From an uncultured Eubacteriales bacterium (lineage in GTDB: Bacteria > Acidobacteriota > Aminicenantia > Aminicenantales > UBA8522), in contig CAYUKK010000016.1 of the NCBI GenBank assembly GCA_964445305.1, positions 1 to 54,409 on the forward strand: DNA of 54,409 nt, in the 5' to 3' direction. Positions within the stretch are counted from its first letter, which is position 1, and every line of letters begins with the position of its first letter. The position numbers and the translations under genes were made by a program. This document shows positions 3,096 through 13,697 of the stretch, one piece after another. The notes under the pieces were generated by a model. It saw only the letters and a program-made list of their open reading frames with translations. It searched no databases and was not told where the DNA came from.

Positions 3096-3674
3096 ATGGA
3101 AATCCAGCGAAAAGTGAAGTATGAAGAGGAGTTAGATAGACAGTTCCTTGACCTCATCAAGAACATGTCCGGCTGCGATGATATCGACCGCTGCATCCAG
3201 TGTGGAACTTGCAGCTCCTCTTGCCCCATGGCGGTCTACATGGATTATCCGCCTCGCAAGATCATTGCCATGATCAAGAATGGTTTCCGGGACGAAGCGC
3301 TGCGGAGCTTCACCATCTGGCTCTGTCCATCCTGCTACACCTGCCAGGTCCGCTGCCCCGCCAACATCAAGATTACGGACGTCATGTATGCCCTGAAGAG
3401 GGTTGCCATCGAGAAGGGTGTCTACCCTACCCGATTCGCCATCCCCATCCTGGATAGGGAGATGTCCAAAATCATCGCCACCAACGGCCGCAACTCCGAA
3501 CTCTGGCTGATCCTCAGACTCTACCTCAAGTCCCGCAAACCGCTTGGCCTGCTCAAGATGGCCCCCCTCGGCCTGAAGCTCATGAAAACCGGCCGAATGA
3601 GCTTGAAGAAAGAATCCATCAAGAATAAAAAACAGTTGCGGACGTTATTGAAAGCCTTGAAGGAGGGAGCTTGA
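3096..3674 (+). CDS. hdrC: Heterodisulfide reductase subunit C-like 2x[4Fe-4S] protein
   Basis: Motifs CIQCGTCSSSCP and WLCPSCYTCQVRCP; AGGAGG SD; its stop overlaps the hdrB start. Confidence 0.88.
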   Translation: MEIQRKVKYEEELDRQFLDLIKNMSGCDDIDRCIQCGTCSSSCPMAVYMDYPPRKIIAMIKNGFRDEALRSFTIWLCPSCYTCQVRCPANIKITDVMYALKRVAIEKGVYPTRFAIPILDREMSKIIATNGRNSELWLILRLYLKSRKPLGLLKMAPLGLKLMKTGRMSLKKESIKNKKQLRTLLKALKEGA

Positions 3675-4543
3675 TGAACGGTTACATCTATTATCCCGGC
3701 TGTTCTTTGAAGGGGAATTCCAAGCATTATGAGGAATCCATCCTCCCCGTGTTCAAGGAAGTGGGTCTGCCCCTCGAAGAACTGGAAGACTGGAACTGCT
3801 GCGGCGCAACAGCCTATTTCTCCGTCGATGACGGCATGGCCGCCGCCATCTGCGGCCGCAACCTCTCGCTGGCCGAGAAAGCCGAAAAGGACATCGTCGC
3901 CCCGTGTGCGGGCTGCTATCTCACTCTCAAAAAGTCCAACAAGTTCCTAATCGGGGGGAGCGAAAAAGCGGAGAAAATCCTTGCCGCTCTGGAAAAAGCT
4001 GGCCTGAACTACACCGGCAAGGTGGACGTCAAACATCCCCTGGAAGTCCTCACCCAGGACGAAATGCTGGACAAGATAAGAGCCAGAGTTACCCGTCCTC
4101 TCAAGGGACTGCGTGTCGCCTGCTATTATGGCTGCCAGCTGGTTCGGCCTTACACGGACTTCGATGACCCCGACTACCCCACCTCCCTGGACAGGCTGAT
4201 GGCGGCGACCGGAGCAGTGCCGGTCGATTTTTCGGGCAAAACACGTTGCTGCGGCGGCTCCCTCACCGGCACCATCGAGGAGGTCGGGTTGCGGCTCAAT
4301 TACATTCTGCTCAAAGAAGCGAAAAGAAAGGGCGCGGATGTCATTTCGACCATCTGTCCGCTCTGCCAGTTCAACCTTGAAATCCTCCAGGACAAGATGG
4401 TCAAGAAATACAAGGAGGATGTGAGGATGCCTGTGCTCTATTTTAGCCAGCTCCTCGGGCTGGCCATGGGCCTTGCCAAAGAGGATCTTGGTTTCTCCCG
4501 TTCGATCATCGACCTCAAGCCGATGTGGGAGAAAATCGGATAG
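3674..4543 (+). CDS. hdrB: Heterodisulfide reductase subunit B-like (two CCG domains)
   Basis: YYPGCS...WNCCGA...PCAGC and YYGCQ...RCCGG...ICPLCQFN. Confidence 0.92.
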   Translation: MNGYIYYPGCSLKGNSKHYEESILPVFKEVGLPLEELEDWNCCGATAYFSVDDGMAAAICGRNLSLAEKAEKDIVAPCAGCYLTLKKSNKFLIGGSEKAEKILAALEKAGLNYTGKVDVKHPLEVLTQDEMLDKIRARVTRPLKGLRVACYYGCQLVRPYTDFDDPDYPTSLDRLMAATGAVPVDFSGKTRCCGGSLTGTIEEVGLRLNYILLKEAKRKGADVISTICPLCQFNLEILQDKMVKKYKEDVRMPVLYFSQLLGLAMGLAKEDLGFSRSIIDLKPMWEKIG

Positions 4544-4553
4544 GAGGATGGCA

Positions 4554-11928: not shown

Positions 11929-11939
11929 GGAGGTATCCG

Positions 11940-13697
11940 ATGATAAACCTGACCATAGATGGAAAAAAGGTCCAGATTGAGGAAGGCAAGACCATTCTCC
12001 AGGCTGCTGCTAAACACGAAATCAAAATCCCGACGCTCTGCTACCATCCCGTTATCGAAGCCTATGGCGCCTGCCGCGTCTGCATGGTCGAAGTGACCGT
12101 TCGCGGGAAAAGCGATCTGGTGACTGCCTGCAACACCAAGGTCCAGGAAGGAATGGAAGTCCAGACCGCCTCCGCAAGAGCCCTCAAGGCCCGGCAGTTG
12201 AACGTGGAAATGCTCATGGCCAGGGCACCGGCGGCTGAGCCCGTCCAGGAACTGGCCAAATCCCTGGGTATCGAGAAGACCCGTTTCGAAATCAAGGACC
12301 CCCAGGAAAAATGTATCCTCTGCGGTCTGTGTGTGCGGGCCTGCGAGACCATCGTCGGCGCATCGGCCATCAGCTTTGTTGAAAGGGGAACCGACAGGAA
12401 GGTCATGCCTCCCTTCGGCGAGCCATCGGAAGCCTGCATCGGATGCACGGCCTGCGCCTATTTTTGCCCGACGGGTGCGATTACCTACGAAGACAGGTAT
12501 GGCCGAAAGGTCATCCACACCGAGCTCCACCTTGGCCCGACCACGGCCATCCGGGTGCCCATCCGTCAGGCTGTGCCCATGGTCCCCTTCATCGACACCG
12601 AAGCCTGCATCCATTTCAAAACAGGGGAGTGCAAGGTTTGCGCCAAGGTTTGCGACCGCGAAGCGATTAACCACGACATGGAGGACGAAACCATCGAAAT
12701 CGAAGTCGGGTCGATCATCCTGGCCAGCGGCTTCAAACCCTTCGATGCCCGACGCATCCCGGCCTATGGCTATGGCCGTTTCCCTAACGTCATCACGGCC
12801 ATCGAATTCGAGCGCCTGGTCAACGCCTCAGGACCGACAGGTGGAAAAATCCAGCTGGCTGACGGGACCGAGCCCAAAGCAGTCGGCATCATCCATTGCG
12901 TTGGTTCAAGGGACGAAAAATACAATGAATATTGCTCCCGTGTTTGTTGCATGTACTCGCTCAAGTTTGCTCATCTCCTCCACGAAAAGACGAACGCCGA
13001 AGTTTACGATTTTTACATCGATATGCGCTGCTTTGGAAAGGGCTATGAAGAGTTTTACCACCGATTGCTCCACGAGGGAACAAAGTTCATCCGGGGGCGA
13101 GTCTCCGACATCACGGACATGGCCATGACCCAACAGGAAGAAGGAAAGCTCATCATCCGGGTTGAGGACACCCTGCTCGGGACTGTGCGCCGCATCCCCG
13201 TCGATATGGTCATTTTAGCCACGGGACTCGAGCCCGGTCTCGACCACAACCAGCTGGCCAAAATCTTCAATATCTCCTGCAGTCAGGATACCTTCTTCCT
13301 CGAGCGTCATCCCAAGCTGGCGCCGGTATCAACGTTTTCCGATGGCATCTTCCTGGCTGGAGCTTGCCAGGCGCCTCGTGATATTCCTGATACGGTGGCT
13401 CAGGCAGGGGGGGCAGCCGCTGAAGCCATGGCCTTAGCTGATAAGGGGACTTTTGCTCTCGAGCCTGTGACCGCCGAAATCAACGAAGACCTCTGCTCGG
13501 GATGCCAAATCTGTGTCAACCTCTGCCCGTTCACGGCCATCACCTACGATAAAGAAAAGGGAGTGTCCGTCATCAACGATGCCCTGTGCAAGGGTTGCGG
13601 CACCTGCGTTGCCGCCTGCCCGAGCGGCGCTTCGCACCAGAGACATTTCCGCGATGAGCAGATTTTTGCCGAAATTGAAGGCATTTTCATCGTCTAA
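11940..13697 (+). CDS. Fusion of a HydA/NuoG-type N-terminal Fe-S domain and the HdrA C-terminal half
   Basis: About aa 1-185: IPTLC..GACRVC..TAC [2Fe-2S], CILCGLCVRAC and CIGCTACAYFCP. From about aa 200 it is HdrA-like: QAVP, CIHFKTGECKVCAKVC, IILASGF, YGYGRFPNVITAIEFER, HCVGSRD..YCSRVCCMYSLK, FYIDMRCFGKGYEEFY, HPKLAPV, GACQAPRDIP, and C-terminal CSGCQICVNLCP/CKGCGTCVAACP. Confidence 0.9.
   Translation: MINLTIDGKKVQIEEGKTILQAAAKHEIKIPTLCYHPVIEAYGACRVCMVEVTVRGKSDLVTACNTKVQEGMEVQTASARALKARQLNVEMLMARAPAAEPVQELAKSLGIEKTRFEIKDPQEKCILCGLCVRACETIVGASAISFVERGTDRKVMPPFGEPSEACIGCTACAYFCPTGAITYEDRYGRKVIHTELHLGPTTAIRVPIRQAVPMVPFIDTEACIHFKTGECKVCAKVCDREAINHDMEDETIEIEVGSIILASGFKPFDARRIPAYGYGRFPNVITAIEFERLVNASGPTGGKIQLADGTEPKAVGIIHCVGSRDEKYNEYCSRVCCMYSLKFAHLLHEKTNAEVYDFYIDMRCFGKGYEEFYHRLLHEGTKFIRGRVSDITDMAMTQQEEGKLIIRVEDTLLGTVRRIPVDMVILATGLEPGLDHNQLAKIFNISCSQDTFFLERHPKLAPVSTFSDGIFLAGACQAPRDIPDTVAQAGGAAAEAMALADKGTFALEPVTAEINEDLCSGCQICVNLCPFTAITYDKEKGVSVINDALCKGCGTCVAACPSGASHQRHFRDEQIFAEIEGIFIV

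Follow-up and report, generated by a model that had tools for sequence, protein, structure and literature searches.

A divided HdrA and its fusion to a HydA-type iron-sulfur domain in a conserved operon of uncultured Aminicenantia

The window analysed here is the whole stretch of 54,409 nucleotides of contig CAYUKK010000016.1 (assembly GCA_964445305.1, labelled G000 in the genome comparisons), from an uncultured Aminicenantales bacterium; all coordinates are in window numbering unless another contig or locus is named. Between 3096 and 13697 it carries 13 genes on the plus strand, in which the heterodisulfide reductase subunit HdrA is divided between two genes and its C-terminal part is fused to an iron-sulfur (Fe-S) domain of the HydA/NuoG type. 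By gene calls and Pfam, the genes are closely packed, with spacers or overlaps of at most 23 bases, and AGGAGG-type sites stand ahead of the inspected starts at 4548, 9694 and 11940, which bears out the tight coupling and good Shine-Dalgarno sites described in an initial annotation of this DNA. Promoter-like sites in the region number 12 (4.5 expected), and the GC content of the spacer 5' of hdrC drops to 0.46-0.47. The features are given below, "long form" denoting loci in other genomes that share the 13-gene order of the window.

2765-2908, plus strand: two sigma-70-like promoter matches in the AT-rich spacer 5' of hdrC (consensus matches only, 11/12 and 10/12)
3096-3674, plus strand: hdrC, 192 residues, 2x[4Fe-4S] subunit (Pfam Fer4_8/Fer4_17)
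3671-4543, plus strand: hdrB, 290 residues, two CCG motifs, the sites of non-cubane clusters (Pfam CCG twice, E 3e-28)
4548-5405, plus strand: N-terminal half of HdrA, 285 residues (283 from the ATG at 4554), matching 5odc_A
5407-5769, plus strand: DRTGG-domain protein, gene 1 of the sensor cassette (Pfam DRTGG; position kept in long-form loci)
5766-6218, plus strand: histidine-kinase-like ATPase (Pfam HATPase_c/HATPase_c_2)
6215-7594, plus strand: HydS-like [FeFe]-hydrogenase homolog (Pfam Fer4, Fe_hyd_lg_C, PF04060 FeS)
7600-7941, plus strand: second DRTGG-domain protein (Pfam; synteny)
7938-8675, plus strand: PHP-domain phosphoesterase (Pfam PHP and PHP_C; synteny)
8684-9250, plus strand: second HATPase_c protein (Pfam, E 7e-19; synteny)
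9228-9683, plus strand: NuoE/HydC/HndA-like [2Fe-2S] subunit, BfuC (Pfam 2Fe-2S_thioredx, E 9e-50)
9694-10083, plus strand: small thioredoxin-like 2Fe-2S protein in the HndB position, 129 residues (weak Pfam match; orthologs)
10096-11928, plus strand: long NuoF/HydB-type flavoprotein, BfuB, 610 residues (Pfam Complex1_51K, NADH_4Fe-4S, SLBB, Fer4_21, 2Fe-2S_thioredx)
11940-13697, plus strand: fusion protein, 585 residues, whole gene
11940-12509, plus strand: BfuA-like part of the fusion, residues 1-190 (Pfam Fer2_4, Fer4; PDB matches)
12510-13697, plus strand: linker (residues ~191-197) and HdrA C-terminal part (residues ~198-585) of the fusion (8rvu_a 251-651, E 2e-119)
13782-14318, no strand assigned: copy of a dispersed repeat of ~535 base pairs (bp), directly after the operon

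As the initial annotation had stated, hdrC and hdrB are followed by an N-terminal piece of HdrA only. Its product matches residues 3-261 of the solved HdrA 5odc_A (E 7e-100) and comprises the N-terminal Cys-rich domain with its [4Fe-4S] ligands, the GxGxxG Rossmann motif for flavin adenine dinucleotide (FAD), the FPTLDCAAC motif and the first CxxCxxCxxxCP motif of the inserted ferredoxin domain, before it ends in a conserved tail of ~25 residues. The remaining HdrA is indeed found behind a HydA/NuoG-type domain: residues 1 to ~190 of the fusion protein match the N-terminal Fe-S domains of HydA/NuoG (9mqx_A, E 8e-39; 8a6t_A, E 2e-30; also 7t2r_A) and hold the [2Fe-2S] (Fer2_4) and 2x[4Fe-4S] ferredoxin domains that make up the N-terminal Fe-S domain of BfuA, with no H-cluster domain, and residues 163/165-583 match HdrA 8rvu_a 251-651 and 5odc_A 245-650 (E 1e-113 to 1e-119 for the two). 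This C-terminal part contains the second motif of the inserted ferredoxin domain, the remainder of the thioredoxin reductase (TrxR)-like FAD domain with CVGSRD..CSRVCC, and the C-terminal 2x[4Fe-4S] ferredoxin domain, the MvhD docking side, which aligns to 8rvu_a up to residue 651. The separation of the halves was put at ~7 kb in the initial annotation, and the two genes lie ~6.5 kb apart; ~3.8 kb of this distance is a six-gene sensory/regulatory cassette that had gone unnoticed.

Every cluster ligand, the FAD motif and both HdrB CCG motifs are invariant in 17/17 aligned sets, so that the earlier claim of a full complement of HdrA ligand motifs holds. In the N-terminal half, the invariant positions are C16, H17, C18, C51, C76, G154/G156/G159, F193-C198, C201 and C250/253/256/260; in the C-terminal part, they are C223, 231, 234, 238, 320, 332, 336, 337, 519-529 and 550-560. 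The TrxR-like FAD domain is spread over both proteins (G154/G156/G159 and F193-C201 in the N-terminal half; C320, C332, C336 and C337 in the fusion), the two motifs of the inserted 2x[4Fe-4S] ferredoxin domain lie on separate polypeptides (C250-C260 in the N-terminal half; C223-C238 in the fusion), and the C-terminal ferredoxin domain lies in the fusion protein (C519-C529, C550-C560). The Fe-S part of the fusion has invariant cysteines at C34, 45, 48, 64, 125, 128, 131, 135, 166, 169, 172 and 176; the motif of a His-ligated cluster is absent from it, no Cys or His between C64 and C125 being invariant in 13 sequences.

Pairwise local alignments of each half to seven full-length bacterial HdrAs leave -7 (an overlap) to +20 residues uncovered; the halves are thus complementary, as had been proposed, without any large gap between them. 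The inserted ferredoxin domain is interrupted in its loop, after the first CxxCxxCxxxCP motif and before the second, and each cluster of this domain would therefore need cysteines from both polypeptides. Because the FAD GxGxxG motif occurs only in the N-terminal half, the fusion protein cannot be a self-sufficient flavoprotein, and because the ~650 residues of HdrA are distributed over two distant genes instead of forming one polypeptide, the system is a split and fused variant rather than a canonical HdrA member. We infer from these features that the two HdrA pieces reassemble around FAD and that the inserted ferredoxin domain is rebuilt from two polypeptides. Structure prediction provides a hint in this direction, from a single comparison with shallow alignments: the fusion appears to fold poorly exactly where the partner would be needed. 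Folded alone, it reached a predicted template modelling score (pTM) of 0.38, with a predicted local distance difference test score (pLDDT) below 50 at 191-264 and 444-509, whereas a full-length relative with an alignment of equal depth reached a pTM of 0.73 and had, in that domain, a sole long low-confidence stretch (257-273), a loop that coincides with the split site.

The N-terminal half appears to be under strong purifying selection, with a ratio of non-synonymous to synonymous substitution rates (dN/dS) of ~0.04 relative to genome G177 (dN 0.11, dS saturated); the estimate covers this half only, dS being saturated for the fusion gene and hdrB as well. These features bear on an alternative in which two unrelated enzymes are interleaved, a degenerate Hdr remnant (HdrCB and a dead HdrA stub) and a Bfu enzyme that reuses an HdrA-derived domain, with no reassembly. 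Such reuse would suit the many different third subunits that Bfu enzymes recruit (PMC9304861). It is very improbable, however, given that the stub keeps all ligands and the FAD motif under this selection, that the fusion is devoid of the FAD Rossmann motif and of half of a ferredoxin domain, and that the HdrB catalytic motifs are invariant. In two genomes, moreover, the stub is fused to NuoE: in loci L039 and L049, the HdrA N-terminal half and NuoE form one open frame (confirmed by Pfam for L039), which provides Rosetta-stone support for a single complex.

HdrB is related to the solved HdrB 8rvv_B (E 4e-50), its invariant cysteines (C11, C43, C44, C79, C82; C155, C193, C194, C229, C232; 17/17) building the two CCG motifs, HdrC carries the 2x[4Fe-4S] motif (Fer4_8), and hdrC orthologs hold the same position in 16 other loci. 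The NuoF-like protein consists of an N-terminal 2Fe-2S domain, a core for flavin mononucleotide (FMN) and NADH, a 4Fe-4S domain and a C-terminal 2x[4Fe-4S] domain, and matches HydB of the bifurcating NiFe-HydABCSL enzyme (7t2r_B) over its full length (residues 9-607 on 3-594, E 3e-266); it was also aligned full-length to 7q4v_B and 8a6t_B. By Pfam domains and full-length alignment, this protein and the NuoE-like protein are a BfuB/BfuC pair, and the full-length match to HydB indicates that the NADH/ferredoxin core is complete. The small protein at 9694-10083 has no Pfam family at E<=1e-6; a longer open reading frame (9565-10083) matches 2Fe-2S_thioredx at E 4e-4, below the cut-off. Its orthologs in long-form loci are 56-78% identical, and in the compact paralog described below a related segment stands at the N-terminus of NuoF. 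Four loci (L025 7513-10662, L034 6796-9960, L047 3997-7110 and L049 6785-9958) contain a NuoF-like frame of ~1040-1060 residues that is extended C-terminally by a large additional region, perhaps another module for nucleotide binding.

The architecture recurs widely. Of 8000 database clusters scored, the best 120 are all full-length fusions of 536-591 residues (78-94% identical); those with an NCBI name are called Aminicenantes, and the JGI name is "heterodisulfide reductase subunit A". Among 201 genomes sampled from the phylum, 10, from several families, contain 13 full-length fusion matches. The search of related genomes for the same split, fusion and synteny, which the initial annotation had suggested, yielded 12 loci for comparison, nine of the long form and three of a compact, six-gene form (hdrC-hdrB-hdrA(N)-nuoE-nuoF-fusion). 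One compact copy lies in the same genome as the window (contig C227, 3283-9866), its fusion being 55% identical to that of the window. In a library clustered at 50% identity, the whole fusion is matched by only three representatives (P0124, P0127, P0143), so this ~590-residue type is a compact family.

A scan of one genome per species gave at least 80 loci; its figures refer to the matches listed. The junction is covered in at least 22 of 80 loci and occurs in at least six other bacterial phyla, the titles naming Bryobacterales, Terriglobia, Anaerolineae, Verrucomicrobiota, Ignavibacteria, Myxococcales, Desulfobacterales, Spirochaetia, Thermoanaerobaculia and two archaeal bins. By synteny, the junction loci divide into 12 of the ~590-residue type (two cut by contig ends) and 10 of a ~1080-residue type (one in two frames), called type II, in which a double HdrA-like protein follows the Fe-S domain and NuoE carries a short, fused piece of HdrA. 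The type II proteins (L037, L044-L048, L050-L053) have ~1060-1120 residues, with one frame of 1239, and consist of a HydA-type Fe-S domain followed by two HdrA-like units, BamE-like; the piece fused to NuoE upstream is a short HdrA FAD-Rossmann segment, and MvhD comes next, interrupted by an in-frame stop in several Desulfobacterales loci. Type II offers another solution for joining HdrA pieces to Bfu subunits.

Such recurrence also speaks against a chimeric assembly or a pseudogene in decay as the source of the split. A 234-contig draft with a repeat of more than 100 copies and a doubtful contig join just after the gene might invite this suspicion. The break points at 5405/5407 and the junction at 12.5 kb nevertheless recur with intact frames in independent assemblies, many samples and several phyla, and contigs of two independent sequencing runs cover 12500-13814 unchanged. 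The explanation thus has next to no probability; for the split and the fusion, both chimera and decay are excluded, and doubt remains only beyond 13782.

Several frames outside the window deserve mention. In the Anaerolineae loci L038 (1627-2478) and L040 (2592-3467), a TGA codon in frame takes the place of the second Cys of FPTLDCxxC in the N-terminal half of HdrA (C201 of the protein encoded in the window) and probably encodes selenocysteine; similarly interrupted frames occur in L066, L076, L078, L086 and L094. Other genomes of the class and phylum (G109:C5:307142-308233, G145, G027, G043, G010) carry frames of 1133-1178 residues, another HdrA fusion architecture, whose HdrA C-terminal part is 64-66% identical to residues ~220-583 of the fusion.

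The genes mvhD, mvhG and mvhA lie directly 3' of the fusion gene in 9/9 long-form loci and in 0/3 compact loci; in L024, the fusion gene is followed, after a gap of 12 bases, by mvhD (FlpD), the [NiFe] small and large subunit genes, hycI, hypB and hypA. In the window, the ~535-bp repeat begins 84 bases after the fusion gene. This repeat has more than 100 matches in the 2.85-Mb, 234-contig draft genome, many of them right where a contig stops; the fragmentation is probably due mainly to it, and every contig join across it is doubtful. The copy at 13782-14318 has no Rfam match at E<=0.01 and no terminal inverted repeats; shorter deletion variants exist, and another copy lies at 53147-53455. Of the four runs represented by Logan contigs (X1-X4), X1 and X2 have contigs that stop at 13814/13831 and resume at 14238/14281, with a depth inside the repeat of up to ~280-fold that of the flanks, and no listed contig of the four runs bridges 13.79-14.28 kb.

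The mvhDGA ortholog of this genome is found on C227 (25184-22323), 78-81% identical to that of L024/G133, and C227 ends at 25617 with a shorter copy of the repeat, which precedes mvhD. The order on C227 mirrors that of G177, with a compact operon and, convergent to it, hypA-hypB-hycI ... mvhA-mvhG-mvhD; in G177 the long operon continues onward from there. The left flank of the window (an HD-GYP regulator) is common to G177; for the right-flank gene of the window, no counterpart was found close to the operon of G177 or G133. From this synteny, the true neighbour of the fusion gene is most likely mvhD. The convergent stretch of C227 (9883-25184) holds hypA-hypB-hycI, a hybrid kinase/receiver gene and a second [NiFe] hydrogenase, with a gene for an NAD-binding/FAD subunit beside it, before mvhA-mvhG-mvhD at the contig end.

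The initial annotation had envisaged a complex "without H2 catalysis", which is probably wrong for this operon type, since mvhD-mvhG-mvhA follow the fusion in all nine long-form loci and this genome holds the ortholog at the end of C227; a hydrogenase-free HdrA/HydBCD complex fits the compact paralog better. In its general form, this alternative is an NADH/ferredoxin-dependent heterodisulfide reductase: NADH, with or without reduced ferredoxin, would enter via the HydBC-type module and electrons would pass through the fused Fe-S domain to HdrA, the disulfide being reduced at HdrBC and ferredoxin at the free C-terminal ferredoxin domain, in functional parallel to FlxABCD-HdrABC. It draws on the window as assembled, on the compact paralog, with neither mvhD nor mvhGA behind it in 3/3 loci, and on unsplit hdrCBA-mvhD-nuoE-nuoF-bfuA clusters that exist without mvhGA (L059; compare the nuoEFG-mvhD-hdrA units of Desulfotignum, PMC4046663). 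We consider it unlikely for the long form, given that every relative sharing both sensor cassette and gene order carries mvhDGA directly downstream, that the orthologous mvhDGA of this genome sits at a contig end behind a repeat of the same family on a contig mirroring G177, where the operons adjoin, and that the right-flank gene was not detected beside the operons of G177 and G133.

Concerning the origin of the architecture, unsplit relatives have the order hdrC-hdrB-hdrA(~665-680 residues)-mvhD-mvhG-mvhA-hycI, with an HdrA 54-62% identical to the C-terminal part of the fusion; in one of them (L074), the loop at the junction closely resembles the two ends made by the split. The inserted genes follow the Hnd order: NuoE, small 2Fe-2S protein, NuoF, HydA N-domain. 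With such relatives at hand and the inserted genes in Hnd order, the earlier proposal of a hydrogenase-type operon embedded inside hdrA is upheld, and the best reading of these sequences is that a HydBC/Hnd-type cassette entered the hdrA gene of a canonical hdrCBA-mvhDGA operon. A quick tree of the HdrA C-terminal part (66 rows, the duplicate row L078_OTHER_3 dropped) places 19 of 23 fusions in one group together with L074, with a Shimodaira-Hasegawa-like approximate likelihood-ratio test (SH-aLRT) value of 89; a trio from Anaerolineae and L039 fall elsewhere.

The long form also contains, between the N-terminal half of HdrA and nuoE, the six-gene cassette for a DRTGG protein, a HATPase, an Fe-hydrogenase-like protein, a second DRTGG protein, a PHP protein and a HATPase_c protein. 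The first ATPase gene (5766-6218) has a counterpart in eight of nine long-form loci and was not flagged in L026. The HydS-like protein has N-terminal 2x[4Fe-4S] clusters, an H-domain and a C-terminal Fe-S motif, with no PAS domain. Its H-domain keeps the four cluster cysteines; the proton-transfer residue, the first Cys of TSCCP, is an alanine here, and ACP, PCP and SCxxGC, positions assigned by eye, replace the L1-L3 motifs given in PMC6085437. Group D (M2e) putative sensory [FeFe] hydrogenases have the same architecture and kinase-like ATPases alongside (PMC13104023, PMC8163306), and by its domains 6215-7594 has the architecture of this putative sensor group. The cassette, the second paralog, the attachment at the inserted ferredoxin domain and the doubtful contig join after the gene had all been overlooked in the initial annotation.

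Taken together, the gene order and sequence relationships suggest, with a probability of about 0.65, that the window holds the hdr/diaphorase part of a conserved multi-module operon, and that the HdrA pieces, HdrBC, the HydBC-type core and, in the long form, MvhADG belong to one complex. The translational fusion of the HydA-type Fe-S domain to the HdrA C-terminal part would attach the Bfu-type module at the ferredoxin arm of HdrA. In HdrA-type enzymes, the C-terminal ferredoxin domain takes the electrons of the MvhD-type adaptor and the inserted domain is the low-potential exit (10.64898/2026.04.10.717634); the fusion is therefore a probable bridge between the bifurcating FAD of HdrA and the FMN/Fe-S core in the HydBC module. 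The docking site of MvhD would be the C-terminal ferredoxin domain, as usual, with the high-potential electron going to HdrBC. Electrons from H2 at MvhA may thus pass via MvhG/MvhD to the FAD of HdrA, from where one would travel through HdrC/HdrB to a disulfide and the other by way of the ferredoxin domain shared by both chains, and then the fused Fe-S wire, to the HydBC-type core, which would exchange with NAD(H) and ferredoxin. The complex could couple H2/H+, disulfide/dithiol, NAD+/NADH and ferredoxin, either oxidising H2 to produce NADH and reduced ferredoxin or, running backwards in a fermenter, evolving H2 as a sink for these two reductants; the compact paralog would be its hydrogenase-free version. 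A candidate disulfide partner of HdrBC is a DsrC-type protein (G000:C151 9998-10303; 133 bits, over the cut-off) with a C-x10-C-V end and both redox cysteines; dsrA was not found in the genome, so this protein is only a lead as the substrate. The specific picture of a tandem bifurcation machine, in which the low-potential arm of HdrA is hard-wired via the two-chain ferredoxin domain into the HydBC core, with the [NiFe] hydrogenase at the input and four redox couples in one soluble complex, is put forward tentatively, as possible rather than probable.

Several points weigh against this interpretation. As assembled, the window has no mvh gene after the fusion gene, and a mis-join at the repeat and a real rearrangement are both candidate explanations. 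A covalent link of ~10-25 residues alone does not prove an electron path, and in class II benzoyl-CoA reductase (BCRII), the HydA-like subunit feeds the C-terminal ferredoxin domain of HdrA via an MvhD-like adaptor, not the inserted domain (10.64898/2026.04.10.717634). A single origin of the fusions was rejected by the approximately unbiased (AU) test when all 23 were held together (p-AU 0.0005); the architecture arose more than once, or modules were exchanged. The sensor role of the HydS-like protein is uncertain, as the maturase HydG (TIGR03955) was over the cut-off in none of six carrier genomes, G000 (92.8% complete) and G177, G133, G071, G031 and G023 (92-96%), in a search that did not include HydE and HydF; either the protein is without a [2Fe] subcluster or the maturases are unassembled. 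Finally, among the sequencing runs searched, the stretch was found in no RNA run.

If the proposed coupling is correct, it would be a second, independent solution, beside BCRII, for joining both kinds of bifurcation module, widespread in uncultured fermenters (Aminicenantia, other Acidobacteriota, Anaerolineae, Verrucomicrobiota, Ignavibacteria). The connection would be written into the gene structure itself, by fission of HdrA in its ferredoxin output domain and fusion to a HydA-type wire, so that the gene structure predicts which arm of HdrA talks to the HydBC core; it would also offer a clean case in nature of two chains apparently rebuilding a 2x[4Fe-4S] ferredoxin domain. Members of the family are frequent among abundant uncultured anaerobes, where they are currently labelled "heterodisulfide reductase subunit A", "2Fe-2S-binding protein" or an ordinary group 3c hydrogenase, and the H2, NADH and ferredoxin balance in metabolic reconstructions of these lineages may be wrong as a result.

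Two further gene sets of this genome involve related proteins. The only full-length HdrA (648 residues, 44% identical to the C-terminal part of the fusion) is encoded on the minus strand of contig C5 (L010, 2467-13996), directly downstream of a three-gene 2-oxoacid:ferredoxin oxidoreductase set, in a strand block that also encodes ferredoxin-domain proteins, an NAD-binding/DHODB-type subunit, a CCG protein and an FAD_binding_2 flavoprotein; this is a different Hdr context. A third Bfu-type operon lies in the window at 48217-52945 on the minus strand, followed by the repeat copy at 53147:

52421-52945, minus strand: NuoE-like protein
50551-52452, minus strand: long NuoF-like protein
49832-50647, minus strand: BfuA-like Fe-S protein, 271 residues
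48217-49797, minus strand: protein with a glutamate-synthase domain, 526 residues

Among known systems, MvhADG-HdrABC, an electron-bifurcating heterodisulfide reductase driven by H2 (solved structures 5ODC, 8RVU, 7BKB), shares the parts HdrC, HdrB, HdrA, MvhD, MvhG and MvhA and their order with the operon described here, and both HdrA halves match solved HdrA (E 1e-100 and 1e-119, about half of the aligned residues being identical by eye). The differences are that here HdrA is split in the inserted ferredoxin domain, a NuoE/NuoF/HydA-N cassette, with or without the sensor cassette, is inserted, the Fe-S domain is fused to the C-terminal part, and the organism is a bacterium. From the sequences, the unsplit bacterial hdrCBA-mvhDGA operons appear to be the evident ancestor. 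The group 3c MvhADG hydrogenase is represented by mvhD and the small and large subunit genes beside hdr in 9/9 long-form relatives, and here at the end of C227.

FlxABCD-HdrABC links an NADH-oxidising module genetically to HdrA, with parts that are separate, complete and unsplit. The nuoEFG-mvhD-hdrA gene units of Desulfotignum phosphitoxidans (PMC4046663) likewise connect such a module to HdrA, as here, but with all proteins separate and complete and with MvhD as the presumed adaptor. Locus L059 (hdrC-hdrB-hdrA-mvhD-nuoE-nuoF-bfuA) also has an unsplit HdrA.

The Bfu family (HydABC/HndABCD/NiFe-HydABCSL) has the same Hnd gene order, a full-length HydB match and a HydS-type cassette upstream, but the third subunit here carries the HdrA C-terminal part instead of an H-cluster domain or a directly bound NiFe module. 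No split-HdrA Bfu type was found in the available text of the Bfu survey, in which only the Bam-Bfu type has an HdrA module (PMC9304861). A split HdrA fused to a HydA/NuoG-type domain with MvhADG downstream was not found described in the available portions of the literature searched (PMC9304861, PMC4046663, PMC8671834, PMC7509429, PMC10766756, PMC10689502, PMC3362086, PMC11237513, 10.1101/765248, PMC5861303, 10.64898/2026.04.10.717634, PMC5736913, PMC6085437, PMC13104023 and PMC8163306; supplements and the main HdrA review, Appel et al. 2021, lie outside this scope). A system of this split and fused type is labelled group 3c MvhADG/HdrABC in a genome paper on an Ignavibacteria metagenome-assembled genome. 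All parts come from known families (Mvh-Hdr, Bfu/Hnd, HydS); it is the fission and fusion of HdrA that was not found described.

A further related system is BCRII (BamBCDEFGHI), the only described complex that joins a HydBC-type module (BamGHI) to an HdrA-type module (BamE/D/F), a coexistence that, according to the available text of the preprint, had not been reported before (10.64898/2026.04.10.717634). Its BfuA-type subunit is reported to be without one Fe-S cluster (PMC9304861), and the fusion here is without the His-ligated cluster motif. In BCRII the subunits are separate: BamI passes electrons to the MvhD-like BamF and on to the C-terminal ferredoxin domain of BamE, and the inserted domain leads to the tungsten active site. 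In the present operon, by contrast, the covalent attachment of the Fe-S domain is at the inserted ferredoxin domain, a single HdrA unit is split where BCRII has a fused double unit, and a [NiFe] hydrogenase is the predicted partner; the ~1080-residue type II relatives look more BamE-like than the ~590-residue type. HdrA-FAD and the FMN/Fe-S core of HydBC are mechanistically different bifurcation modules that, as far as the available text of the 2026 BCRII preprint goes, have been shown in one complex only once; the operon family described here would be a second architecture that combines them.

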